64,000 bases of DNA, from assembly GCA_044892525.1 (NCBI GenBank), contig CM097885.1, positions 218,674,001 through 218,738,000 on the forward strand, given 5' to 3'. The notes under the pieces were generated by a model, which did not search any database, was not told the DNA's origin, and was given only the letters and a program-made list of their open reading frames with translations. Source of the stretch: Schmidtea polychroa. Lineage: Eukaryota. Position 1 is the stretch's first letter; the number at the start of each line of letters is the position of its first letter. Both the position numbers and the translations under genes were made by a program. Of this stretch, positions 18,596-44,327 are shown piece by piece.

Positions 18596-21500
18596 TAGGG
18601 TTGTTAATATCGGTTTTTCGAGCAATCCGATTATCGTTTGTATAAATCCGATTTTAAACCGATTATCGTTTGCACTTTGCATAACCAAAGCTACTTACAT
18701 TATTACTATTCACGCGCGTGTATAGTATAATTAGTTTTATTCAAAGTTTATACCACACACAAGGAGAATATGAACTGACTGTTTATGTAAAAAGTTAAAG
18801 CATATAAGTAAATTTGTTTTCAATTTCTTCGGTAATTTTCCCTGTATATACTAAAGTATAAATCAAAATAAAACTTTCCGGTGCTGCGGTGGCCTTATTT
18901 TAAAATTAAACATAAACATATCGAAACCATAGATATCAAAAACAAAGATTCCAAAGTGTAAACATTTAAAAGTAAGTACTAAATTCGATTTTATTTTTAA
19001 ATATCAGACAAGTCCTGGTTCATATTCAAAAAGACCAAAGATTCTGCATGATCTGGAAGGAGCCGGTTACGAAGCTTGGTTATCAGACGTCCAGTGGCCG
19101 AAAATAATCGTTCCGATTGCACTGAGGTTGCAGGAATGCATAAGAACTTCCGGGCAAGAATAGCTGTTTTGGGGAAAAGTTTCATATTATGTTTCCACCA
19201 CTCCAGGGCTGTTTCACTTGAGTTTGTCGACCATGATGATTTGACGTAATATTCAAAGTCGGATTCCTCTGGCGCCTGTTGTGCTGCACTATCACCAAGG
19301 AGAAACATAACTGCATCATGATTTGGTCGTGATCTTTTAGTTGGTGGGATCATGTTATCTTCATCCCGACTCGTCTTCGGCTGTTCGGGGCAATCTGGCA
19401 GCTGTCTGATGAGATGACGGACATTTTCATACGCCAGCTTTTTGAAATCGTCCGGAAATCCAGGAAGATGCTTATACATCGGATCGAGAATTGATGCAAC
19501 AACGCATTCGTTTTTTGCTGTTTCATTATTTTCTAATCCAAAACGACGTGAAATATTCTTAGCAAGATCTCTCTTAAATTCACCCATAATGTCAGAATCT
19601 TCTTCTTTAATGGTTAAATGATTTTTCACGAGTCCCCATAACATGGGAAAAACACAAGAGGCTGATGGCTGGCTTTCGGCTGACATGACGGACGTCACGA
19701 TCTGCAACGCTTTTAAAACAGGGAGCAATTCAGTCATCAGTTGCCAATAATCGTCCTTCATGCCCAACGTTTTGGCATCGTTCAATTTCACCACGTTTTT
19801 GTCGCTCAATACTGCAACTACTGGCCATCTCAGTTCTACTAGTCGTTCAAACATGTCATAGACGCTGTTCCAACGAGTCTTACAGTGCTGAATAAGTTTT
19901 AGTGGCGTTTTATCCTTGTCCATGGACAACTGTCTTTTCAGGAGCTCCCCCGTTGCCATTGGGCTATGTGAGAAATGTCCGACTAGTCGTGCTGCAGCTG
20001 ATATACATTTGGAAATTTGATGATATGTGACAACATGGGAGCCCATTGCATTATTGATGCAAAGTTGCAATTTATGCGCCGCACAGTGAACGTCAAACCA
20101 TCCATTGAGATTGCCTGCATGATTGATGTTGGATGCACCATCATGGACACATGCAACAATTTTTTCTTTTATTGACCATTCATCAGCTATACTACATAGA
20201 TGGTCAGCAATGACGGCTTGTATGTGGCGTTGAGTCATCAGAATTGTTCCAAGAACAGGCGTCATCATATTCCAGTCTGTATCAATGTAGCTTGCAGTAA
20301 AACTGAGATAAGCTTCATTGGTGACACTAGTCCAGATGTCGGTAGTGATCGCAATGTCCTTGACATGTTCATGGATATATTTCGACATTTTGACCACTAA
20401 ATTATTTTTCATTGCTGTTAGTCGTGCTGTCATCGTCTGACGACACGGAGGACGATATCCTGGCTCCACTATCGCCATCAATTCACGGAAGGATTTCGAT
20501 TCCACGAGCGAAATTGCCAACATATTTTCGGAAATCAATCTCGCAACCGCAGCCGTAATTTTTTCCTGTTTACTACTCGGACAATTTCTTTGTGTTGTAA
20601 TCAATGCAGTCAATCGTGTTTGAGTATTTGAAGATGTTGTTAATCCACCATGTTTGCTACGCAAATGTGCATGCAAACCAGTCGTAGTACCTCCACTCCT
20701 ACTTATTTTCTGTGTACAGAGCTTACATTGTGCCATCGTCGCCGAAATTTTATCAAAATTGTCCCAGACGTCAGACTTATTTATACGGAAACCCATAAAT
20801 TTAAACTGATTTTGTATTGATTTAGATAATATAAAAAATGTTTATTGAATATTACGTAATATTCAAACTAAACCGCAATTTTCAATTATATGGATTAATA
20901 ATAGCTACTACAAGAGCAACTAACTGAATGAATGGAAATTATATAACAGTTTATATGTTTATAGTAGATTTGAACCATGGATTGGAATTTCCAAAATCTT
21001 GTCATAAATTAAAATCCCGAAAATCAATTTACTTCGACCTGAGCAGCCTCTTAGACATTGTCAAAAGATCAACAAACTGAATAAATTTGAGAATGGTCGT
21101 CACCCAAACTTGAAGTTTGTCCTAGTGTCCAACTCTCTTCCATATTTCAATGGGTAAACAACCAAACATTATGATTCGAGGAATGGCACATGTCTTTCGA
21201 TCTCTTTACATCTGGCTTTCATGAAGATGATGCGGTATGCAATTCAGTTTATTCTGGTTTTAAGTTAAAACCAGAATAAACTTTTAACCGGTTCGCAGAT
21301 GCAAGATATCAGATTGCAAAATAGACCTTCACGGACTAAACACAAAATCGCCGACCTCGGCCACATCTAGTCCCTGTCAAGGGGGTTAATAGCTAAGCTT
21401 CTGTTATGGACTGCAGTAATCAAATCTTTGGTGGCCGATTTCGGCAACAAATATCAGGTTGCCAAACAAAACCGGCAAAATGCAAATACTAAAACACACA

Positions 21501-27592: not shown

Positions 27593-28447
27593 TGTTGGGT
27601 TTTTAATGCAAGTCGGTACTACGGTCTGACTCCTTTGTGTTCTTTTCCAAATAAATAAATAAACAAATAACCCAACACAAAATCTTTATTGACACTGATG
27701 CAGTTACACTTTTACACTTGTATTAGTTTACTCACACTTGATACAATCAGGTTTTGTCTGCACTTTTCAATTGCCAACAAATCTCACACAGGGGTAGATC
27801 TTCCAACGGGAGATATCCCTTTCTGGTACGTTCGATTTTTTTTTTATATGGTTTACTTTCGACTAACTTTGATATTTCCTTTTTCACTCGCGTCAACCTC
27901 TGTTTTCTTTTCTTCGACCAACTGGCATTTTGTTTTCTTGTCAGTTGCTTTTATACTCGCTTGTTAATTGACTTTATTTTTGCCAATTATTTTTGGTTTT
28001 ATTTCCCCCGGGCTTCCTCTTGGAGGTCTAATTTAATTGAAGGGAATTTGCTCATTTCCTTTGACGGCGCTTTTTATCCGGCTAAATTAATTGCCTTCCC
28101 GAAATTGGATTTCTCAATTCGCTCGGGTTTTCCATTGTATCGGGTTTCCCATTAGCTCGGGTTCTCCATTAGCTCGGGTTTCCCATTAGCTCGGGTTTTC
28201 CATTAGTTAATTAATTTTTGTTTTTTTGTAATTTATTCCTTTTAGGGACCCCCCATTGATTTTATTTTATTATAGCTGAACTCGTCTCATTATTCAGCAT
28301 CCGCCCATACCAGTTTCCCCCAGAAAATATTCATTTTTAAAATTTTGATTTTTTAATTAATATTTTGTACTTTAAATTTTTATTTTGAATTTGGTGTTTT
28401 TGTCAATTTTCACCTCATTTTTGTGCCTCTCTTGTTGAACCCCAACA
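27593..28447 (-). repeat. 3' LTR (855 bp)
   Basis: TGTTGGG...CCCAACA; differs from the 5' LTR by 2 substitutions and 1 homopolymer indel that I could see. Confidence 0.97.
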
Positions 28448-28461
28448 TATTTCCCCCCTTT
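28448..28461 (-). other. polypurine tract
   Basis: AAAGGGGGGAAATA immediately before the 3' LTR. Confidence 0.92.
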
Positions 28462-30625
28462 AATTTAGATTCGACCTCGAATCTGTACATTTCTTATGGT
28501 TCAAACAACAACAACAATAGTACCAATACTAATAACAATAACAAAATAATAATAATGTTCTTATAGTTGAAATAACAACAGTGATAGCAACAGCACTTAC
28601 CATTACCATTACCATTATTAAATTATTATAATACCAATAAATTGAGATGAATTTTTAAATGTAAAGGGTGAATGTAAATAAAACATTGAAATAAAAAAAA
28701 TTTGCTTAGAAATTTTCAAAAATTTTACCTAATAGATTTTTGTTGGATTATTTACAAGACAAAAAAATATTAATGTAAAATTTGATAAATTTTCATAATT
28801 AACTATAAAAATATTTGCAATTATCTTAAAATAAATATTTCCCAACAATTAAAACTGTTGAAATAAATTTCATTTTTGTTGATTAAAACATTCTTGTATT
28901 TATTGAAATTAGAATTGATGAAATTTCTCTATTAGTCTAAAATTACTTAGTTGAAAGCTCATTGATATTAATCAGTTTAGTTAAATGCCCAGATGGGATG
29001 AGGCAAATTCATCTGCTGTGTCAGTGGCAGAATTTCAGTGGGCCAATATCGAATTACTCAATTAGATTGCAGTTGAGGGCAATTAAATTATTTACGAAAT
29101 TGGTTTGCGCTTTTGACGGGAGATTCAAAAAGAAAATGATAATTAAATCCACCCATCATCCGATTGAATTTTTTTTTCAAATCTACAATTTGGACAACTA
29201 ATTCAAGGGTAATTTAATTTTGTTTCGCAAAATAGATTTATTTTTTTTTCTTCTTTCAGTTCTTACACGAGATAAGGAGAAAGCCAATCAGAAGAAAGGA
29301 GGGAAGAAACGAATTTTTTTTACTTTATAAAGGCAATCACATTTCCATATCATTTTTCATTGTTTTGTTAATTTTGAAATTATTACCATAGAATATTATT
29401 ACCTGATTATACCGAAATTATAAACAGATTATTCTTAGTTAACATAGAAATATAGTTGGACAAAACTAATAATAAAGTTCGTAAATAATAATTTTATTTT
29501 ATTTTGTTTTTTTCATTTCCCTCTTAGATTATAGATATTTAAACAGAATTTTCGGCACTGGCTTTTACAAGTGTTTGGACAAATATAAAACAAAATAAAT
29601 GATCAACAATGCAAAAAGGAAATGAATATTTTACAGCTTTTGTTTTTTCACACAGACAATCCGAAAAATCACCCCCGAACCGACGGCGCACCGTCTCATC
29701 CACTCCGATCTGACACAGCCGATGTGGACAGCCAAGCCCCCACCCATCGTTGGCTTGACAAATATTAATTTTATTTTTTGAAGTTAATTTTATATTTATG
29801 CATTAAAGTAAGTAAATTTTCTTTTCAATTGAATTTAATAAAAATTTTTGTAAATTTTCTTTTTGATTGAATTAGTATATAAAAATCAATGCAATGTTTA
29901 TAATATTTTGAAACCAATTATAAATTCGTATAATAAACTGCTAATGAATTTCCAACACACATGTAAGTTGATGTGTAAATGATTGAGAGGTTTTCTTTTT
30001 ATTATAGGCGGTTTTATTAAGTGAAACATGGATAATAGTAACAACAACAACAATAATACTAACAATAATAATAATAACAAAACATAAACAATTCTGAAAA
30101 ATTAAAAATTAATTATTTCATTTTAAATAAAAGTTCATCAAAATATTTTCAATTTTCAAATCAAAATTTCTGAAATTTATTTTTTCCCTTAAACTTTTGT
30201 GTCTGTTACTGAAAATGAAATTTGATAATATTTCAACCGAAAATTAGTCGATAAAAACGTAGACATTTTATTTTTGACTAATTAAACATAACAAAACATC
30301 TCAATGCTTTATACTGGAAGATGGGAATGAAATTGTCTAATGAATTTTTAATAATAAATTGTTATGATTTGTGACAACCTGTTTATGTGGCTCTTTAAAA
30401 CTACTCATTTCCAATTGTTGTCCAGGGTAGCCAAACCCCGACAATTGGAAATGTGTTTGTTGTTATACACAATAATAAGTTTATTTATTTATTTAATCAT
30501 TTATTTACTCTCAATTATTTACTTATTTATTCTTATTTTTGGGGTCTAACTGATGCGCTGCCAATAAATACATGAGACAAAATCGAGTTCACAATTATTT
30601 ATTTTATAAATACAATATATAAAAA

Positions 30626-32095
30626 TTAATCCATCTTTATTTCTAATCGTTTCGTTTCATGCCGATATCGTATTATTGTCTCTTCGCGTTCATATACTAC
30701 ACCATTGACAGTGACAGTGTCTCCGACATCAATGTTCGAAGTTGTTTTTCTCTTTTTGGATTTTCTACATTCTGGCATTGGACCATATTCAAGTGTTGGA
30801 TGTATCCTTATCATCGAAATGCTTTCCATTAATGCGACACCTTCTTCCGCAATTTCTAAGAATGATTCATTGGCCCACTTCACTTGAATCAATGGATTTT
30901 CATTATCCATCGTCACATTCTCCTCGAATGTTAAATCAATTTCTTCAGATTCCATTACATCTTCAATTGGAATTTGCGTTAGTTTTTCCGGTATTGCAGT
31001 TGATGTTGATTCAATTTCCCGAAGCTTCTTATATTCGTCCCACGAATATCGCTTTGACGGTTGATTTTTGGGCATCGGTATGTCATCAATCCATTGACTT
31101 TCTACTTTCTGGTATACCTTGCGTATACTTTTCACGTCCTCGAGAGCCGAATGAATACTCATCTGAGTCTGTTCTCCACATATTTCTTTCACCACTGTTT
31201 GTAATTTGAACCATTCTCCCCTTATGGTTACTCCCATGTTCTGAAGTATTGGTGCTGCTGCTAGATCTCGAATGCCGTACAATTGTTCAATCCATATCCC
31301 CAAGTATTGTAATTCTGCATGTAAATCATGGCCGATCAATATCTTGCCCACTGTCAAGCGTTGAATTTCTTTTATTGCCACGTATTGATCACATTGGTTC
31401 CTGCTAGCCACTTCTGTAATTCCATGGATCCTTGAATTAAAATGTCGGATTTTTCCTCTTGGAGTGAGGTATACATCTTTTACTACTTTTCCATAATAAT
31501 TCATAATTGCTATTGCTAAAGGGATCATTTTCCCTTGGTCTGATGTGCCATATTCAGCATCAATGAATAATATTCTATTGCGGATTTCTTCTAGATCCAT
31601 TTCTTTTCGGAGAAACGACATTTTCTTTTTCAACATTTCCTTTGAAATTTTCAATAACATTGGGTCTTCTCCTTCAATTAGATGCATCTGTGGTACCTCA
31701 TCCGCTTCATTCTCAGTTCTGATTTCCACCACCAACGTTGTCTCCTCATTCGCTGCTCGTAGTGTTCTCCACATGAAGTCCTTCTGCAGCTTCCATGATG
31801 TGAATTTTCGGAGTTGCCACCATATTGTATTATCGTTCTTCAGCACTTCCACTGTACCTCTGATCACGTGTATGTGATATTCTTCCTTCTGAGACAACTC
31901 AATTTCATCTGTCAATTTCAATTCTGAATTTCTCCTTATTGTAAACATTCGTATCTTCATTCTTCTGTCATCTATCCGCAAATAATTTGGAATTTGTAAA
32001 TTTTCATTGATTTCGTATAATTGTTGGCTGGCATGATTTTTCTGCATCTTGAAGTAACTGTCGTAGGTGGATCTTGCCCATTGTACTTGTTCCAT
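30626..32095 (-). CDS. proviral accessory ORF (489 aa) with ISG20/REX4-like DEDDh 3'-5' exonuclease domain
   Basis: ILFIDAE (Exo I), IHGIT, KILIGHDLHAEL (Exo II), HSALED (Exo III) with ISG20-like spacing; intact ORF; TTTTAG acceptor with 5 nt between it and the ATG. Confidence 0.85.
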   Translation of the reverse strand: MEQVQWARSTYDSYFKMQKNHASQQLYEINENLQIPNYLRIDDRRMKIRMFTIRRNSELKLTDEIELSQKEEYHIHVIRGTVEVLKNDNTIWWQLRKFTSWKLQKDFMWRTLRAANEETTLVVEIRTENEADEVPQMHLIEGEDPMLLKISKEMLKKKMSFLRKEMDLEEIRNRILFIDAEYGTSDQGKMIPLAIAIMNYYGKVVKDVYLTPRGKIRHFNSRIHGITEVASRNQCDQYVAIKEIQRLTVGKILIGHDLHAELQYLGIWIEQLYGIRDLAAAPILQNMGVTIRGEWFKLQTVVKEICGEQTQMSIHSALEDVKSIRKVYQKVESQWIDDIPMPKNQPSKRYSWDEYKKLREIESTSTAIPEKLTQIPIEDVMESEEIDLTFEENVTMDNENPLIQVKWANESFLEIAEEGVALMESISMIRIHPTLEYGPMPECRKSKKRKTTSNIDVGDTVTVNGVVYEREETIIRYRHETKRLEIKMD

Positions 32096-32527
32096 TTTTG
32101 CTAAAATAGTTATAATTTAACGTTTGAATTTAATTTACTTTTAAAACTAGGGCTGAGATGAAGTATCCGAAGGATACTGTCCCAGCTACTAGCTGTATAA
32201 ATAATAATAATAATAATAATTACCGTTTAGTTAATTGTTGATATATTTTTTTTTTTTGAAAATTAATGGAGTTTAATGGATTTTACCCTCTTTTAATACC
32301 CTTATGAAAATTCCCTTAACCCCGTTTTTCTCTCCCCCTTAACACAGCGCTAACCAATCAAATTGGTTCTTTCCGTTGACATTGAAAAGTGCAGATTCAC
32401 AAGTAAAATAAAATGAAATATTGATCATATCCATAATGAAATAAATATTAATAATATCCATAAAATATTTATACTATATTACTACTACTACTTTATCAAT
32501 TTTTGCATGCAAAGTATTTATGTCTTA

Positions 32528-34602
32528 CTACACAAATGTTTCTTCATAAACGATCCAAGGTCTCGCAATCTCGGATCGATTCGTAGAAGATTTGGGTATT
32601 GTTCGAAATTCAATTAGCACAATGATAATGAGAATAATGAGAGAGATTGTTATAATGAGAGTAGTTATTAATAATGTTACACACACAATTTCACTGTCAG
32701 TTTTTAATGACGATATGGTTTTGTTATTAGTCATTGACTCATTGATGCTAGAAAAGATGATTACGTTGACAGAGCTAGGGGTTCGGTTGGACTGATTTGA
32801 TTTGTTTCGATTTCCATACTGCGAGTTAATAGATGGAATTTGCACAATTTTATTTTCCACTAATGTTAATTGCCATAAATTTGAAAATAGAGAACGTCTA
32901 TAGTATTTTATTTTAATGAACACAAATTTTGACGTCGATATTGGTGAACGTTGACGAAAAGTTAATATTTGAGATTTATTTTTTTCATTTAATATCGATT
33001 GAATTTTTCCATAATAATATAAAATAGCTTTTTGATTGGGCTCCGCTTGTCGGGTAACATTCACTAATTGATTGAAAATATGAAAAGTAACCCGATTTGT
33101 TTCATTAACTAATCGTATCATATGTTGACTAGAGTGTATTCTGATCCATTGACTATCAATTTCAGTTCCGTTTTCATATAAAGATTTTTCATAATAATGA
33201 ATCAGAATATTATAGTTATGATGTACTTTTAAATTTGCATACTTTATAAAGGGTTTTCTGCTATTCAATGTATCTATCGCATAATTTTGAAAAACTGCTT
33301 TTACTTGTTGGGATTCCTGGGGTTCCCAAAATATGTCAATTCCATTTACCAGTGGTTCAATTGATACTCGATTATGTAATCTCTTTGTCCAAATATTAAT
33401 ACGTATAAGATTTTGTATTTTTGTATTATTACTTTTCGAATCCAATTGCGTAATTAACCAAGGGTATTCATAATTCATTGTTAATTGTCTAGCCACATAA
33501 ATATTTTTGGTGCTGTTCAATTTTATTGGGGGTTCGAAATAGTTTATTAGATTATCTATCTCTATTTCTTCTGCTCCTCCAGCATAATAAACCCAAACTA
33601 TTTGAGTACATGTTGAATAAATATGAACTTTGTCTAATAATACAACTGTATTAGTTGCATATAACGGGAATACTCTCACTGCATTTACTGACATTATATT
33701 GATAATCATTACTGTTGTAATCAATAAAACTTTATTGATGTAACTCAATGGAGCAGGGTTTTTTGTAAACTTTTGTTTAATTACTGGGTTCCTTGCATCT
33801 TTATTTGGTTTTGATCTCAATGGATAACGTGATTCATCTTCTATTATCTTCTTGCATCTGTTTACATGAACGATGATTGTCCCAGCCTTTTTATTGTTTT
33901 GTGGACGCAATTTTAAGTTAGTCTCTGTCGTATCACACACTAGATATGGTCCTTTAAACGGTCGTTGCAATTTCGTTGACAAGCCTTTTGTTGGTTCTGG
34001 TTTGTTTATATACACGAGATCTCCAATTTTAATGTCATGCGCCCGTGCGCGTTTATCATAGCATTCTTTATACGCTTCTTGATGATGCCTTATGTTAAGT
34101 CCAGCTTGGATCCATACTGACTGTAGTCTTTCATGCATAGCTATTTTATAATCTGACACATCCATATATTGGGAAATAGGTGACTGAAATTCTAGATCGA
34201 CTGGCATATTGTTTCGCCGTAGATACATGAGATAAAAGGGTGTTTCTCCAGTGCTTTCATTTACTGCATTCCGGTATGCAAATAGGCATGGTTTAATGAA
34301 TAAATCCCAATCCTTTTGTTTCCTATTTACATAGGATGATATCATATTAATTAGTGTCCCATTAAATCTTTCAACTAGACCATCTGTTTGTGGATGATAT
34401 GGTGAGGTACTAAGTTTTAATATACCAAATAAATCTGTGATTGATTTAAATAATTCACTCTGAAAATTTGTTCCTTGATCTGTAAGTAATTTCTTTGGTG
34501 CTCCGTATCGAAAAATAATATTCTCCACAAATATTTTCGCAACTGTTTCTGCTTTCTGATTTGGCATTGCATAAGCTTCTGGCCATTTAGTAAGATAATC
34601 GC
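32528..34602 (-). CDS. polyprotein C-terminal part: integrase core and GPY/F, then signal peptide, glycosylated ectodomain and TM anchor
   Basis: DYLTKWPEAYA, LLTDQG, HPQTDGLVERFN, FKGPY, IVHVNRCK; then VLLITTVMIINIMSVNA and IVCVTLLITTLIITISLIILIIIVLI. Joined to the upstream ORF by restoring one T in the run at 34603-34607. Confidence 0.9.
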
Positions 34603-37600
34603 AAAAACGATAATGTATTTGTTGCCATTTGTTGTTTCTGGCAATGGACCAACGATGTCCATTGCTGTCATTTCCATTGGCGCCTTTGGCACTGGCATAG
34701 GCTTAAGCGGAACTTTTATTTTCCGTCCCGTATTTCGTCTTGTTAGGCATATCTCACACGTATGACACCATTGTCTGACATCTTGTTCCATCGTTTTCCA
34801 ATAATATTTCTGTTTCAATCTTGATAATGTTTTTCGCGCTGATAAATGCCCTCCTAATGCTCCATCGTGATACAACAACAGCAATGCTTTTCGATGTTTT
34901 GTCGGAACAATAATTAACAAATTTTCATTTTGTACACATTTTAACAAACCATCATGAATAATGTATTTATGGTTCTCTTCGGCAATATGTTTCCAGTCAC
35001 TCTCCTTTTTGATTGAGACAGCATGTTGACGTAACTGATTTAATTCCTCGTCATTTTCCTGATCATCTTGTAATTTTTCGATATTATTTACCGTTTTAAT
35101 TGCCAAGAATATTGTATTTTCGCAATTTTTCTCATCTTGATCAACATTATTTTCTACGGGTATTCTCGACATAGCATCCGCATTTGCATTTGATTTTCCT
35201 GTACGATACTTTATCTCGAAATCATATTCTTGTAACGCAATTGACCACCTAATTAATTTACTGGCCGAATCTCTGTGCTTCATTAGCCATTGTAACGGAT
35301 TGTGATCTGTAAAGACGACAAATTTTCTGCCCACTAGATATTGTCGAAAAGTAGTTATCCCATATACCAATGCTAACGTTTCCTTTTCGATTGTTGAATA
35401 ATTCTTTTCATGAGGTTTCAATGATCTGCTGGCATAAGCAATTACATGATCTTTTTCCCCTTCTACTTGCTGTCCTAATACCGCGCCTAATGCGAAATTA
35501 CTGGCATCTGTCATTAATATAAACGGTTTTTTAAAGTTCGGACATCTTAATATCGGCTGTTTTATTAAGCTTTCTTTGAGTTTATCAAACGCTTCTTGCT
35601 GAGCTGTTGTCCATTTAAATTTTGCTTGCTTTTTCAATAACATGTTCAAAGGTTGTGCTACGTGTGAGAAACTTTTAATAAACTTTCTGTAATAACTGGC
35701 TAATCCCAGAAATTGTCGAACCTGATCTACATCCTTGGGAATAGGATATTTCCCAATTTTTTCTACATTTTCTGGATTTGGTTGCAAACCTCGACGCGAA
35801 ATGATATGACCCACATAAACGACTTCAGATTTCCCCCATTCACATTTGGAGGGTTTTATTTTTAAGTTTGCTTCTAACAATCGCTTGAATACTGTTTCCA
35901 CATCCTGCAAATGTTCCTGAAAACTATTCGAAAATATTATAATATCGTCAATATACACTAATGCATGTGGTATATCGCGCAAAACAAAATTCATACCTCT
36001 CTGAAATGTAGCAGGTGCTCCTGTTAATCCGAATGGTAACACGTTAAACTCATATAGACCCTTCCCATCTGAAAATGCAGTTTTCCTTCTATCTTCCTCT
36101 TTGACTTTAAATTGATTGTATCCTTTATTAAGATCTATTACCGTAAAATATTGCACCTCCCCCATCTGATCGAACATTTCCTGTGGAACAGGAATAGGAT
36201 ATGTATCTTTTCTCGTTACTTGGTTCAATTTTCGATAGTCGACACAAAATCTTAAATCACCGTCCTTCTTTTTAACTACTACTATTGATGATGAGAATGG
36301 TGAGGAACTATCTCTTATTATATTGAATTCTTTCATTGCTTTGATTTGCCGATCACTTTCTTCCTGATGTATGTATGGTATTCTGTACGGCCGTAATTTT
36401 ATTGGGGTTTCGTTGAGTAATGGTATTTCATGCTCAATCACCTGAGTGAGTCCCAGATCATACTCATGTTTTGCAAATACATTTCTATATTTCTTTAATA
36501 ATGCACCGAATTCTTGTTTTTGCAAATCCGTCAAATCTTTGCTTGTGATCTGAGGTTCTTTATAAATTTTTATATTTCTCGGTAACTTCTGAGCTTCCTC
36601 TGATTTGATTTTTGTTAATTTTCCCAATTTGGTTTTGGGTTTTATCTCAACGGATCTTGCACTATAATTCGCTATTCTAACTGGTACTGACTTATTTTGG
36701 ACTTTCACTACTTCATCACACATAGGCACATCGTATTTTTCAACCAGCTTTTGATTTGGCTCAAATATGTACTCCTCATCTGAGACCCTCATAACATCTG
36801 CATAGTATATTACTTCGCTTTTTGGTGGTACTTCCAATGTTTGGTTTAGAAATACCTCTCCTACTTCAGGCACTACTTCACCCATTTGTCCTTTTATTAG
36901 TTTTCCAGTTCTCAGATCAAGAGAGATTCCATGTAGTTGCTCCATGACATCCATGCCAATTAGACATTTTACAGGACTTTTTCTCATCACTGATACCCAA
37001 TGAATTATTTCTTGCTCTCCAATTATCAGTTTAACTTCTAATTTTCCAACAATATTTAGTGCATTATGTGACATTGATTTAATAATGTGATTCGTTGGTT
37101 TTATTTTGGCTTTCTCCTGATACGTCAAGAAACTTTCCGCTACTATAGTATGACTTGAGCCTGAGTCTAATAAAGCTTCCACTTTTCTCTTGTTAAACTG
37201 TATGTTTATTCGAGGTTGTTTTCCTCCTACTACTGTTGTCATTAGTGCATAGCTGCATGGTAGACCAAGCATATTCTTTCTTTCAATTTCAGCACTCGTT
37301 GGTTCAATCTTCTCTAATTCGATTGTGATATTATCTACAGGTTTCATTTCTTTTAATTGTTCATTTGGATATATTGGTGCTGTTGGTCTAAATGTCGGGG
37401 TATACCATCTACTAAGAGTATCAATCCCGCTTAATTTTGGCATTGGTTCAAGCAAGAACCTGGACTCTGGCTCTACTTTACTCTTTATTACACTTTTTCG
37501 AAAGCATTTATACTCCGATTCCCCGTTGTTGTTATCATCATTATGATCGTCGTTTTTATCTTCCGACTGACACGTCGATTCCTCACTTTTTCGGCCATTT

Positions 37601-40600
37601 CTTAATTGTGCCCTTACTCTTGCCATTTCTTTAAATTGATGATCTGTAATAAAGAATCTAGCCAACAATGGAATACAACCAATAACTAATTTCCATGACC
37701 ATCCCGATATTGCGTATATTCGATGTACTGACAACATTTGCGACACTACCACCTTTGCCGTTATCATAATCACGTAAATTCCAATTAAACCTGCACATGC
37801 TTGTCCCAAAAACATGAACTTGCCCCAAATCTTTTCCATCGTTTTATATGTAGCTCGTTTGAAATGATCAGGTGTTAGCAAATTTTCGTAATTTACTGTT
37901 CCTTCTCCATTCGGTAATACTGTGTCAATCATTTCTGAAATTATCCGTTCCTTTTTGGATGGAAACAACAAATTCCTTTGAGCTTCTTCGATATCTTCGC
38001 TTGCATACAAGCCCATTTGTGCCATTTTGTTTAGTGATGTGAAATTTATCAGGTATTCTAAATTTGTTAATTCTAGTTTGTCTGGAGTCTTGACCCCACG
38101 ATAATCTGGTAAGGCTATCCATGAGTCTGTAGCTAATCGGTATAAAGGGGCTAATAATCGATTGCATTGCAAAAGTTTTGGTTTAGTTTGTTCATCAAGC
38201 AAGATTCTAGTTATCGGTTCCATAAATCGTACCTTTCCCCCAAAGCTTACTGGTAATTCATTCGTACATTTTTCGTATTTGGCAATTTTCACTGTGACTT
38301 CTTTGCATTTGTAACTGTATAATGCTTCTCCAAATATTCTCGCAAACACTCCATTTTCTGATATTAGCATAGGTGCTACTAAATTTGGATTCGTAATTGC
38401 CATCGCCATCCGATTTCGGAGAATCTCTTTATTCAACTTACAATCGTTCAGAATCATTTCTCTATATACATTTTCCATGATGTTTTGACTAAAATGAAAC
38501 AAATAATCAATTTTATTATTAAAATAATGAGTAAGTTTAATGTCATCTCTGTGAATTTTAATTTTTGCTTCTTCCACAACATTTCTAGACACGTAAACAC
38601 CTTTATAATTTGTTACATATACCATTCGACCACATTTATTTGTGATTTCCTTTTTTATAAATCGCATTCCATCTGCTGGTAACGTAGACATTATAACTGT
38701 TCCCATTTGCTTTGTCCATACTGGGGTTGATTTAATGGTATTATTTGGTCTATAATTCATAGTGAAATTATCTGGTTTATCTCTAAACTGTTCTCCTACT
38801 AGCTCTTTAAAGTTCATAGTTTTTAAGTGCGCTAAATTACACTTATTTGTTTCTACATTATAAACAAGAATCGATTCCCCTGTTTGACAATGTGTTTGTT
38901 TCATATTACAGAATGGATGAGTTTGTAATTTTCCCGTATCATCATCGAAAGCTCCTTCGAACTCTCTCAACTCCGTGAGATACTCTTCTAGCACCACTGT
39001 TTGCTGAATAATTTTACCGTTCATTTTATATGGTTCACCTTCACAGTCGCCATTTGCTTTCATTACTCCCTTTACAATTATTGTTTCTCGTATTCTATGG
39101 TTCAATTTTGCCTTTAAACGAATTTCTGGACTTATTTTTAATTCTCCTGTTTGAAATGCTGCTAGACAGTTTTCTGGAAGCACCTCGACTGGCCTAGGTA
39201 TCGCATGCATTTTTATGAGTGACGTATGGCTCCATTTACCACAATAGAATACAAATGTTGTATGTTTGGCAATACACTCTCTCACTTGAGTTCTTCGCAG
39301 ATCAGACTCTTGATACACATAATATTTTACGTCATTTTCTATTTTTAAACTGCTCGGATACGCACCTGGGCATTCCGACATATCTACTACCGAATAGACT
39401 TTTCCCATTTCAGTTTGGGAACAATCGTACGCAACTAAAGATGATGTCTGTGTAATTATTGCACAAAACGTAATCACCATAAACATCGCCCATGGAAATA
39501 TCATAGTTTTTCTTAGTTCTGGCTTAACTCTTTCATTTACTCGTCTTTGGGGTGGACTCATTTCTTGCTTCTCATTTTTCTTTTCTGTTAGAGATGAACA
39601 CAGTGTTTTCCAACCACCTTTTTCGTTTACCCAGCTCATTAAATATTCGTTTACTAGCCGGGCAGCGATGTCTATCAAATTTTCTAACTTGTCGGACCTT
39701 GCGAACGTATGCGTTCCAATTTCTAAAACAACATAAGTTAAAGCTATTATTATAACTTCCTTATTAATTTCATTTTTTGCCAAATTTTCAATTACTGATC
39801 TCTCGCAGAATGTATTCTCTTCGCCAAATTTCTGCATCACTTCAGGAAGCCTATTCTTCATCTCTTTAACTATTTCTTTCAGTTCATCCTCTACCTCTAT
39901 TTCTATGTCGAACATTGGATATACTGCTTTAACGAGATGTTTCAACATTTTCTTAGTTTCGTCGACGTCCTGTTCTAGCCTCACTAAATATTTCTTTATT
40001 TCATATAAAGTTCTAACTTTCTTATTTTTGATTTCACCATTTATTTCGCCTTCAGGTACAAGTGGCTCTCCTTGTACGTCTGGTTCCGTGGACTGATCTT
40101 TGTTATCAGGATCTTTTTGCTCATTATCACTAACGATTTCATCAATTTCTTTATTTCCCTTAACTTTTTCATCTTGTTCCTCTGTGTCAGGCTTGTTAGA
40201 CTCAATATTTACTTCTAAACTCACTCCTTTTACTACGACTATATGGTTCACTAAATATCCCACTCGTCCATCTCGGATCAAATATCCGTTTTCATCCAGC
40301 TCTTGTGGTACACACCCACAATCATATAGGTATTCATCATCGTCAAGTTCTTCACCTTTGTACATTACTATAATAATTCCATCTTTTCCCAGCGTTTCAG
40401 CCGCTCTCTTCCACAATTTTCGGACCTTTGCACACCAATGCTCGTCTACATATTCCGTTTTGCCATATCCCTCATAATCTAATGCTATCAAAAATGGCTT
40501 TAACTCTACTCTTGCCTTTCTGAGCTCCTTGCCCAACCTTTGCAATAAACTTCTTAATAACTTGGCATATCTGGTTTTCACATGTAAATATGGTCGTATT

Positions 40601-42717
40601 GCATTCACTATTTTTAGTTTATCGTTTTCCTCCATTTCTAATTTCTCAATAATCTGTAACTTCTCATTGATTTCATCTTCATCTCCAATATATAACGCAT
40701 CATTTAATTCCTCTAATATCTCCCTTGAATTCCTTTTGTCTATTATTTTACTACTCATTATTTCATCACTAGTAATTACATTTTCCATTTTTAATTCATT
40801 TGTACTTCCTGGAATAAATCCACAATCTACCAAAAATTCGTCATTTTCTAACAATCTCTCATTAAATCTCAACTCTATCATGCATCCTTCCTTTTTTTCT
40901 TTTAATTTATTCTTTAAATCATTTACACAATCATTTGCCTCACAACGACAACATAGTACACTTTTATCAATCTCGTTTACTACTTCCACCAAGATGGAAT
41001 CTAACCCTGTTTTCTCTCTCAAAGCTTTTCCAAATATTTTCATTAATTCTTTAATTTCTTCTTTATACCTTGGATTCATATTATAGTAGTTAACGCACAA
41101 GCTAATTACACTTTTTATCTTTCTCATACTCAAAGATATTTGACTTAATTCTCTCAACGATTTGATCACTTTAGCCGACTCTATTTCATTATTTCCGATT
41201 AGTTTTTCGATTCTGGTCATTATCATTGTTGCTTTTTCACTTTCTAAATCATCTTTTATAACTCTCCTTTTCGACTCTTTTTCATTCAATTCCTCTTGCG
41301 ACTCATACATCATGTGATTATTGTAGTCCTCTTCTGATTCAAACTTTGACATCAATCGATCCAAACGTCGACCCATTTCTCTCACTTCGCTTTCAATTCT
41401 TTCATTAAAATTATCTGGCTGAATAAAAGCTACATTATCCATCTGCGGTTTGTCACTCTGAAACCTAATCGATTTCTTTAATATGGGCCTTTGGAATTTA
41501 TCCACATTTCTTGGACATGATCTAGCCATGTGTCCATAACTTCTGCATGAATGACATTGAATTTGTCCTTGTAGATTTACTTTATCTCTCTGCGGTGATG
41601 GTGAAGTTGATGTTGATCTTGACCTGGCAAAACAATTTCGTGACACATGCCCTTTTCTTCCGCAATTAAAGCATTGTAAGTTATCATTAGTTCTCGGCTC
41701 ATTAATGTTCGCTTTAGTGAAACTTTTCGCACCATTTCCTTTTAACCAATCAGGCCACATTTGCCTTGGACTCCGTTGTACATTATTTTTGGACCAGCAT
41801 TGATTGCTGTCATGTCCCATTCTTTGGCAATTATCACACTGAATCGGAATTGGGCTTCTCTGTACTCTATTTTTAAACCAGCATTGGTTAACATGGTGTC
41901 CAATCCTTTGGCAATGACTACATTGGATGGGACCTTCCTTTCCATCTGTTTGAATATCTGTTGACTTGTTCGACTCAAATTTGGATCTAAATTTTGGTGA
42001 TGGACTACTTGTTTGTTGAAAACGATTGTTTCTAATTGGGGTTACTGATCTTTCGCTTGCGCCTGAGATGACTGCAAACGATTCTGATTTTGACTGTGTG
42101 CTTTTTAAATTTAGCTCAATTTTCATTGCCTTTTTGATCAATTCATCAAAGTCATTAAAATCAACATAGCATAGAGCCTTTTTAATTTCTTTCTTTACTC
42201 CTGACAAGAATTGATCCTGCAATAATTCTTTTACCTGCTTTGCCATCTCGGCCTGTTCTGGTTTCACTTCGAACGCTTTCTCTGCAAGAGTTGATAAATG
42301 ATAAGCAAACTCACTTACCGATTCCTCTGGCTTTTGTACGCGGTTATAGAATTTCTGTCGCATTATCCGTTTGATATCCCCTCCGATTAATTTCGTAGCT
42401 AAAGCGTCTTTCAACTTGGTCCAGTCATTTGCTACTATTCTTTTATCAATTTGTTGCCACGCTTCTCTGGCTGCTCCTTTTAGGTATAGCGGTAATCTTT
42501 GCACCATTATCGATTGGCTCCATCCATAGGCCGTCGCATACATATAGTAATCTGCCATGAAATCGACAAATTCCAGCGGATCTCCACCGTACTGATCCAC
42601 AGGTAGTTTTTGGCAACTCGCATAATCATTGCCTTCCCTGGCATTCCCCACAGAAACTGTGGACACCGGTGTTTCATCATTATTATTTGTATTATTAACT
42701 TGTCTTTGGGTACTCAT
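34603..42717 (-). CDS. Gag - accessory domains - Env-like glycoprotein - protease - RT - RNase H - integrase N-part polyprotein
   Basis: First ATG at 42717; LPLYLKGAAREAW and FYNRVQKPEESVSEF (gag), 4 x CX2CX4HX4C, AYDC glycoprotein, LLDSGSS (PR, D at 37165-37167), LRFCVDYRKLN and YIDD (RT), TDASNFALGAVL (RH), H..ALGGH..C..C (IN zinc finger). Confidence 0.95.
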
Positions 42718-43100: not shown

Positions 43101-43118
43101 ATCACGTCGGGCTCACCA
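43101..43118 (-). other. primer-binding site for tRNA-Trp
   Basis: TGGTGAGCCCGACGTGAT, 4 nt inside the 5' LTR boundary; 17/18 to the avian sarcoma-leukosis virus tRNA-Trp PBS TGGTGACCCCGACGTGAT as recalled. Confidence 0.85.
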
Positions 43119-43214
43119 AATATGTTGGGTTTTTAATGCAAGTCGGTACTACGGTCTGACTCCTTTGTGTTCTTTTCCAAATAAATAAATAAACAAATAA
43201 CCCAACACAAAATC

Positions 43215-43220
43215 TTTATT
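43215..43220 (-). terminator. LTR polyadenylation signal (also 27685-27690)
   Basis: AATAAA about 95 nt before the LTR end; AATAAA at the equivalent position in the diverged LTR near 52515. Confidence 0.6.
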
Positions 43221-43476
43221 GACACTGATGCAGTTACACTTTTACACTTGTATTAGTTTACTCACACTTGATACAATCAGGTTTTGTCTGCACTTTTCAA
43301 TTGCCAACAAATCTCACGCAGGGGTAGATCTTCCAACGGGAGATATCCCTTTCTGGTACGTTCGATTTTTTTTTATATGGTTTACTTTCGACTAACTTTG
43401 ATATTTCCTTTTTCACTCGCGTCAACCTCTGTTTTCTTTTCTTCGACCAACTGGCATTTTGTTTTCTTGTCAGTTG

Positions 43477-43484
43477 CTTTTATA
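43477..43484 (-). promoter_or_regulatory. LTR TATA box
   Basis: TATAAAAG downstream of the U3 tandem repeats and upstream of the AATAAA. Confidence 0.65.
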
Positions 43485-44327
43485 CTCGCTTGTTAATTGA
43501 CTTTATTTTTGCCAATTATTTTTGGTTTTATTTCCCCCGGGCTTCCTCTTGGAGGTCTAATTTAATTGAAGGGAATTTGCTCATTTCCTTTGACGGCGCT
43601 TTTTATCCGGCTAAATTAATTGCCTTCCCGAAATTAGATTTCTCAATTCGCTCGGGTTTTCCATTGTATCGGGTTTCCCATTAGCTCGGGTTCTCCATTA
43701 GCTCGGGTTTCCCATTAGCTCGGGTTTTCCATTAGTTAATTAATTTTTGTTTTTTTGTAATTTATTCCTTTTAGGGACCCCCCATTGATTTTATTTTATT
43801 ATAGCTGAACTCGTCTCATTATTCAGCATCCGCCCATACCAGTTTCCCCCAGAAAATATTCATTTTTAAAATTTTGATTTTTTAATTAATATTTTGTACT
43901 TTAAATTTTTATTTTGAATTTGGTGTTTTTGTCAATTTTCACCTCATTTTTGTGCCTCTCTTGTTGAACCCCAACATTTATGACAATGTGTAAATTAATA
44001 GTGACAAAAGCAAAAGGCAATTTTTAGTCAATGATCCTTTGAAAAAATTAATTTTTAAATAATATATTATTTATTTTGAATATCATTATTTGATTTGATT
44101 TAATATATTTTATTTATTAATTTTATTAAGCAGAGGCGTTAAAAAGAATTTAAAAAACGAAAATCTATCAAATGACGTTCATTTTTCTAAAATATCTTAT
44201 ATAAATGACTTTGTTTTTTTTTAAAAAAGAATGTCAAAATTTAAAAAAATGTAAAATATTCAAATCTATTATTAATTTCATGTATAAATAAATTTAAATT
44301 ATTTTGTTTTTGTTTAAATACCCAAGA

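Follow-up and report, generated by a model that had tools for sequence, protein, structure and literature searches.

A planarian Burro-like LTR retroelement carries a conserved accessory gene for a predicted ISG20/REXO4-type exonuclease joined to a predicted double-stranded beta-helix domain

Among the accessory genes of LTR elements, exonuclease ORF3s have been listed as an established type (PMC6338049). The closest described examples are found in the bdelloid Juno and Vesta LTR retrotransposons and in Terminons, where a separate ORF behind pol of a gypsy-like element encodes a 3'-5' exonuclease in which the DEDD active site has changed to DEED (Rodriguez et al. 2017, PMC5408684), as is also the case at the locus described here. 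Accessory exonucleases of LTR elements have previously consisted of rotifer DEDDy ORFs without demonstrated selection or function. In planarians, Burro/GYPSM1 is described as encoding one polyprotein in the order Gag, ubiquitin-like (Ubl), Bcl-2-like, env and PR-RT-RH-IN (PMC6431247), an order also indicated by matches, in part weak, in the element studied here. Other cargo of Burro-type elements, namely Bcl-2-like and IAP proteins, is host-directed according to the available parts of two reports (PMC6431247, PMC13465017), and Burro elements are described as being silenced by nuclear SMEDWI-2 (PMC8532177).

The window, by which we mean the whole 64,000-nucleotide stretch of Schmidtea polychroa DNA that was analyzed, contains a 16.4-kb Burro-like gag-env-pol LTR retroelement that is young, high-copy and envelope-carrying and lies on the minus strand. 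LTR alignment defines a 5' LTR (43123..43976) and a 3' LTR with a polypurine tract just upstream (27593..28447), both with TG...CA termini; the pair is 99.65% identical over 858 aligned nucleotides and is flanked by a TTTA target duplication. The primer-binding site (43101..43118) matches host tRNA-Trp. Pfam-type matches across the polyprotein (34417..42717) identify zinc knuckles of gag, weakly matching ubiquitin-like and Bcl-2-like cargo, a mononegavirus-type fusion glycoprotein, protease, reverse transcriptase (RT), RNase H and the start of integrase. The envelope gene lies in frame between gag and protease: its PF24664 match (E 1.4e-86) spans 1355-1730, and protease occupies 1833-1929. By eye, a 137-residue part of env shares about 80% identity with Smed_errantivirus_1 (PMC13524379 supplement). 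The Bcl-2 (E 0.01) and ubiquitin (E 0.067) matches both fall short of the cut-off, and their order is as published for Burro. BIR, MATH and ankyrin domains were not found in the element, and its size is not above 25 kb. An integrase frameshift breaks the polyprotein in the window copy, so that the rest of integrase, an ectodomain and a C-terminal hydrophobic segment occupy a second frame (32528..34567); the two frames are one in sister copies. An identity with Troyka was rejected, because Troyka is described as having CG termini and 3-bp duplications (PMC12440569) whereas this element has TG...CA termini and a 4-bp duplication.

Several further features were noted in and around the element. 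The LTRs contain 17-bp tandem repeats (28094-28223 and 43623-43752). A second membrane protein without a Pfam match is fused behind integrase (32528-33800, minus strand), and a membrane-protein ORF also lies upstream of the nuclease in three unrelated contigs (L160, L161 and L169). The tRNA-Trp that primes the element is encoded in a tandem gene array with 284-bp spacing (G000:C4 from 55022433), and the tRNA-Trp pattern has 821 matches genome-wide, 100 of them listed. Elsewhere in the window, an intact 599-aa ORF encodes a hAT transposase with a BED finger (18997-20796, minus strand).

Between pol and the 3' LTR lies an intact ORF in a frame of its own (30626..32095, minus strand), with 489 codons from ATG to stop, as a sequence-only reading of this DNA had reported. 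It starts 433 nt after the integrase/membrane-protein frame has stopped and leaves 2.18 kb between its own end and the 3' LTR. About 180 nt past its stop, an inverted repeat with 12-nt arms (30402-30444) was spotted by eye. Sequence and structure matches divide the 489-aa product into a double-stranded beta-helix (DSBH) domain, a DEEDh exonuclease and an acidic tail. Within the ISG20/REXO4-like exonuclease domain (residues 174-339, 31079..31576), motif and alignment evidence places ExoI, D179-x-E181, at 31553..31561, ExoII, GHDLHAE, at 31313..31333, and ExoIII, H315-x4-D320 (HSALED), at 31136..31153, agreeing with the positions given earlier for ExoI and ExoIII. The third acid is Glu rather than Asp, also as first read, with E261 aligned to D94 of ISG20. 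The catalytic set of D179, E181, E261, H315 and D320 is complete, as in DnaQ-like DEDDh nucleases.

In a phmmer search of solved structures, ISG20L2 (E 9.5e-11) and ISG20 (E 1.2e-7) were the best matches, followed by SDN1 (E 0.016), and the nearest named cellular sequence matches were RNA exonuclease 4. Because a single-sequence model reached a pLDDT of only 29, we used instead a model of residues 1-352 built from an 11-row alignment (mean pLDDT 84), outside which the tail lies. ISG20 and ISG20L2 top the Foldseek list, and the model matches ISG20 (1wlj) with Z 18.0 and an rmsd of 2.4 Å over 159 residues. The next-best folds, Pan2 (Z 15.2) and plant SDN1 (Z 14.3), are cellular proteins with other accessory domains and 18% identity; nsp14 (Z 9.8-9.9) and RNase D (Z 9.9) are weaker. 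Arenavirus NP was absent from the 50 structure matches listed, and an ESM Atlas search gave no usable match. These sequence and model comparisons indicate that the accessory protein is an ISG20/REXO4-type DEDDh nuclease by its nearest relatives, the assignment first made from motifs. From its sequence, we predict with considerable confidence that the nuclease is active. The host also has a DEDDh gene of one long open frame (L041, G000:C3:127852955), which its motifs suggest is ERI-1-like.

In ISG20, D11, E13 and D154 bind one metal, and D94 reaches the second solely via water (PMC9157404), which makes Glu at the ExoII site plausible. In a 36-member alignment, whose rows were picked for intact catalytic sites and in which D179 and E181 are seen in 36/36, the ExoII acid is Glu in 21 members and Asp in 15, against Asp in 80 of 81 cellular relatives. 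Glu at ExoII is a trait of the family. The pocket that reads the sugar also differs. Met14 and Arg53 of ISG20 touch the 2'-OH and are the proposed source of its RNA preference (PMC9157404); by alignment, their equivalents here are Tyr182 and Asn220 (31436..31438), so that the 2'-OH contact would be lost. The Arg53 equivalent is present in 0/36 family members versus 79/81 cellular relatives, and that of Met14 in 1/36 versus 69/81. The pocket that recognizes the sugar has been remodelled in this family and, with both contacts lost, the substrate may be DNA (ssDNA) or modified RNA. Ends of piRNAs carry 2'-O-methylation, and such an end could be one modified substrate. Thus, of the original label 'DEDDh exoribonuclease', the DEDDh exonuclease fold stands, but 'ribonuclease' is insecure with the Arg53 and Met14 contacts gone, and 'exoribonuclease' overreaches the sequence. 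The analogy with arenavirus NP and dsRNA is also weakened, as the available part of the ISG20 study reports no dsRNA activity for that enzyme (PMC9157404).

The N-terminal domain of the protein (residues 1-129, 31709..32095) had been overlooked in the earlier reading of the ORF. In the model it matches ALKBH6 (7vjv) and OsALKBH1 (5xoi) with Z 9.8 and an rmsd of 3.3-3.5 over 126-128 aligned residues, tied with a cupin match at Z 9.5; scores of this size, Z ~9.5-9.8, are middling. Further structure searches also list cupins, and vaccinia C16 (8ag5) is a weak Foldseek match. The only residue of the domain conserved in at least 90% of the 36-row alignment is H76. Neither an HxD...H nor a cupin metal set was found, with the register taken from strand order in the model rather than from superposition, and conservation of H76 alone suggests that the full metal site is gone. 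No 2OG family appeared among 25 of 28 Pfam matches listed for the 36 members queried, and a profile of the domain did not match any of 5 host ALKBH frames. As modelled, residues 1-129 form a double-stranded beta-helix of the AlkB/cupin fold with an incomplete metal triad.

A genome search with the nuclease domain gave 1,190 candidates, of which the 150 best scorers, a biased set, were all 94-100% identical and 142 were stop-free. A less biased sample, which includes the window copy, consisted of the best 30 of 40 copies located through the end portion of the frame upstream. The ORF start was present in 30/30; the active site was covered in 29/30, with catalytic residues unaltered in 29/29. In the part examined, five copies were damaged: three by stops, one broken off at nt 421 and one by loss of the first ATG. 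Catalytic sites are intact in five subfamilies, the other four being 78%, 53%, 35% and 36% identical to that of the window, and in all five the ORF directly follows the polyprotein. A sixth, more distant element subfamily has a dead version at the same position. Two grounds had been named at the outset for abandoning the idea of an element-borne nuclease: an ORF absent or decaying neutrally in sister copies, or an inactive protein whose catalytic residues are not conserved. Neither was borne out by the sister copies and the selection analysis below.

Selection on the ORF was assessed by comparing the subfamily of the window with its nearest sister (A1 versus A2), between which synonymous sites are near saturation. 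The dN/dS values of the nuclease, N-terminal domain and tail were 0.088, 0.116 and 0.218, respectively, indicating purifying selection and not neutral decay. In a codon model, fixing omega at 1 cost 346 log-likelihood units relative to a free omega. Constraint on the nuclease domain equals that on gag, and the ORF comparisons gave no sign of positive selection. Identity to a more distant sister falls from 93% in RT-RNase H to 81% in env, 75% in gag, 69% in the nuclease and 47% in the N-terminal domain. A captured host gene fragment riding along without function would show decay after insertion, as the five damaged copies do, and the private changes of copies (33 non-synonymous, 23 synonymous, 3 stops) point the same way; dN/dS of about 0.1 over nearly saturated synonymous sites, together with the conserved architecture of a 66-member family, refutes this explanation, to which we give almost no credence. 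The ORF is a real accessory gene, conserved and under purifying selection.

One sister element is 98-100% identical across gag-pol and ~80% identical across the ORF, with pS of 0.004 in RT-RNase H versus 0.48-0.57 in the ORF. Comparison of window 28450-32400 with L115+L116 and L119+L120 shows a modular 3' region: another sister keeps the ORF next to an unrelated 3' non-coding region, and mosaic ORFs occur among copies. These comparisons indicate that the ORF is exchanged as a cassette by elements that are ~99% identical elsewhere, as may often be so for host-facing genes.

Upstream of the ORF, motif conservation identifies TTTGATTGG (32354..32362, minus strand), a reverse CCAAT box, as a predicted internal promoter element. 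It is followed by predicted TATA-like (32291-32298) and initiator-like (32257-32262) elements on the same strand. Sequence comparison further predicts that the 5' UTR contains a GT-AG intron of 123 nt (32101..32223), which ends 5 nt before the ATG. WTGATTGG, which occurs 1-4 times per element, precedes the ATG by 266, 262 and 271 nt in the three subfamilies that have this predicted intron, and by 133 and 117 nt in two that lack it; the offset between the two groups is about the length of the 123-nt GT-AG stretch, which is confined to the first three. Inside the predicted intron, folding and covariation reveal a conserved hairpin with a 1x3 internal loop (32147..32192, minus strand), with z of -4.6, -1.7 and -3.8 in the three subfamilies and 5/11 pairs changed on both sides among 6 sequences from 3 lineages. 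This hairpin is possibly a regulatory or protein-binding site; Rfam returned nothing for it. In contigs from four sequencing runs, the best of which may be DNA, no clean splice joint was seen at 32101/32223, and the one 130-nt joint detected runs across a masked repeat.

Comparison of tails highlighted two elements in the C-terminal region. A basic patch, RKSKKRK (residues 444-450, 30746..30766), has counterparts in the tails of 20/28 members versus 6.3 expected from shuffles, the sequences being related and so non-independent; we predict that it is a nuclear localisation signal. A conserved beta-hairpin-like motif near the C-terminus (residues 460-477, 30665..30718) occurs in 11/28 tails versus 0.7 expected, the motif having been derived from the same sequences.

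The position and predicted regulation of the gene bear on two explanations of its function. Acting as a replication helper, an active exonuclease could trim mismatched or surplus ends of cDNA, RNA or primer, either to proofread a 16-30 kb genome or to clear aborted cDNA before it is sensed. A DNA substrate would suit the loss of RNA-selective contacts, and vertical inheritance and a fixed place in large elements fit as well. The nidovirus proofreader nsp14 has a DEED active site, so that this chemistry, and at a distance the fold, are common to both. For the rotifer ORF3, 3'-end processing has in fact been proposed (PMC5408684). Yet the gene is a separate ORF outside the packaged polyprotein, with its own predicted promoter and nuclear signal, is exchanged between identical pol genes and exists as dead versions in young elements, leaving such a role possible but rather unlikely. 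Alternatively, the element might have borrowed an antiviral effector that acts on competing RNA viruses or rival elements, to the gain of host and element alike. ISG20 is described as a broad antiviral RNase (PMC9157404), the Burro1 IAP is said to benefit stem cells in a mutualism (as cited in PMC13465017), and a promoter of its own, as predicted, would allow expression while the LTR is silent. Loss of the RNA-selective contacts and a predicted nuclear location, away from most RNA-virus replication, make an antiviral role improbable.

By word-index search just 1-3 related proteins came to light, and an exhaustive profile search of 1.84 billion representatives was needed to recover the family (50 matches under 1e-30; best 150 matches listed). 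Most members come from contigs without gene context; 'retroelement-borne' holds for this genome and is suggested elsewhere. Of 13 metagenome loci of one branch, three cover enough upstream sequence to reveal a long ORF with a hydrophobic stretch at its end, and one of these three has a retroviral-type protease; RT was seen at none of the loci. Scans of viral contigs were blank. Among 15 members listed for the P0037 cluster, the longest contig is 15.6-17.0 kb in 12 and 1.9-2.3 kb in 3, as if these were a genome-length and a short unit.

In a FastTree phylogeny of 147 domains (156 rows minus 9 that were short or did not align), rooted on one distant row, 66 members form one clade (support 0.999), which is nested in the cellular clade with weak local support. 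A quick IQ-TREE analysis of 59 selected rows, run without an outgroup, instead puts the family on a separate long branch: a branch of 1.56 (SH-aLRT 100) parts 32 family rows from 27 cellular rows, among which the intron-bearing REXO4 of the host falls. The length of this branch argues that capture was old, and the tree against host REXO4 that had been proposed for dating it thus points to an ancient event. Recent capture from host REXO4 was rejected on the same grounds.

Not all members of the family have kept the active site. The larger part has the five catalytic residues fixed across 19-82% identity, in rows picked for intact sites, whereas an 18-member branch (SH-like support 0.956 in FastTree) is without them and keeps the fold motifs. 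In this genome, a divergent Burro-like element (L202, G000:C3:55635019) with LTRs 99.6% identical carries a catalytically dead ORF at the same position. Two further loci (L184 and L185, G000:C1:206877090 and 206979298) are copies of an intact 582-aa member whose active site is lost; in the one copy examined it is not directly behind a pol gene, and it is possibly domesticated or orphaned. The dead branch and the dead gene in a young element imply that catalysis is dispensable in some lineages. Maelstrom and Exuperantia are pseudo-nucleases, and on their model the two domains here could act as a decoy or adaptor that binds nucleic acid or protein, with catalysis secondary. Both observations, and an N-terminal domain that is metal-less yet constrained, speak for such a binding role, but without catalysis the fixation of five catalytic residues over so wide a range of identity is hard to explain, even in rows chosen for intact sites, and we regard this possibility as decidedly unlikely.

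The reading we tentatively favor, at somewhat less than even confidence, is trans-acting counter-defence, in which an active single-strand 3'-5' exonuclease degrades nucleic acids used to silence or detect the element. A gene that lies outside the packaged polyprotein, has a predicted promoter and nuclear signal, is exchangeable and belongs to elements with host-directed cargo suggests a host-facing trans factor, for which counter-defence is the best reading. SDN1 degrades small RNAs, and its place among the nearest folds was counted in favor, as was the silencing of Burro elements by nuclear SMEDWI-2. Under counter-defence, the ORF would be transcribed apart from the LTR and genomic RNA via the predicted internal promoter, and the protein would enter the nucleus through its basic tail. 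There it would hydrolyze its substrate in the 3'-5' direction by a two-metal mechanism in which Glu serves at ExoII; loss of the Arg53/Met14 contacts with the 2'-OH would relax sugar selectivity and admit 2'-O-methylated RNA ends or DNA, while the metal-less AlkB/cupin-fold domain would bind a substrate or partner and so aim the enzyme. The most likely targets would be PIWI guide RNAs. Several points count against this proposal: structured 3' ends are described as resistant to ISG20 (PMC9157404), indiscriminate destruction of piRNAs would be harmful where host stem cells need PIWI, positive selection is unseen, a young element still carries a dead version, PIWI-loaded guides are shielded and loss of Arg53 fits DNA equally. 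A more specific anti-piRNA version joins all the parts: a REXO4-derived exonuclease without 2'-OH readers trims 2'-O-methylated guides, a dead AlkB-fold domain that recognizes methylated nucleotides directs it, the gene has its own promoter and is swapped as a cassette, and the dead branch acts as a decoy. As a whole, this combination is unlikely.

Hundreds of young copies are present in what is probably a laboratory planarian, amenable to routine RNAi and small-RNA sequencing, which makes it testable whether transposons of animals produce enzymes against PIWI silencing. If this protein proves to be a nuclease indifferent to the 2'-OH, it would also be of biochemical interest.

In the literature searched we did not come across any retrotransposon carrying an exonuclease that is of the ISG20/REXO4 type or fused to an AlkB fold; the Burro1 paper (Lee et al. 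2026), Grohme et al. 2018 and Repbase were outside that scope and may annotate the ORF. 'DEDD' is absent from the text of PMC13524379, 'exonuclease' has 0 matches in its 7 supplementary files, and the available part of PMC13269885 does not name such a suppressor. With ISG20, ISG20L2 and REXO4 (1wlj, 7yw5), the protein has in common the fold, ExoI-III, the GH and RD motifs and the catalytic His; unlike them, it has Glu at ExoII, lacks the Met14/Arg53 contacts, has an extra N-terminal domain and lies beyond a long branch. That N-terminal domain is like AlkB and cupin DSBH proteins in fold, while their conserved metal set is absent. Coronavirus nsp14 ExoN and arenavirus NP are virus-borne DEDDh nucleases, but the nsp14 match is far weaker, the capture was independent, no conserved Cys/His cluster corresponds to the nsp14 zinc fingers, and ISG20-type enzymes are single-strand specific. 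The element itself is compact compared with Burro, for which the available part of the description does not name an exonuclease (PMC6431247). Relative to bdelloid ORF3, which is RNase D-like and DEDDy, the nuclease here is of the DEDDh ISG20/REXO4 type, with His315 rather than Tyr and a much closer match to ISG20 than to RNase D. The accessory ORF has an added DSBH domain, and env coexists with it instead of being replaced. For bdelloid ORF3, the available part of the report describes no departure from neutrality (PMC5408684), whereas purifying selection is clear here. This gene therefore goes beyond the known ORF3s in its independent and ancient capture, clear constraint, novel domain pairing and division into a live and a dead branch.
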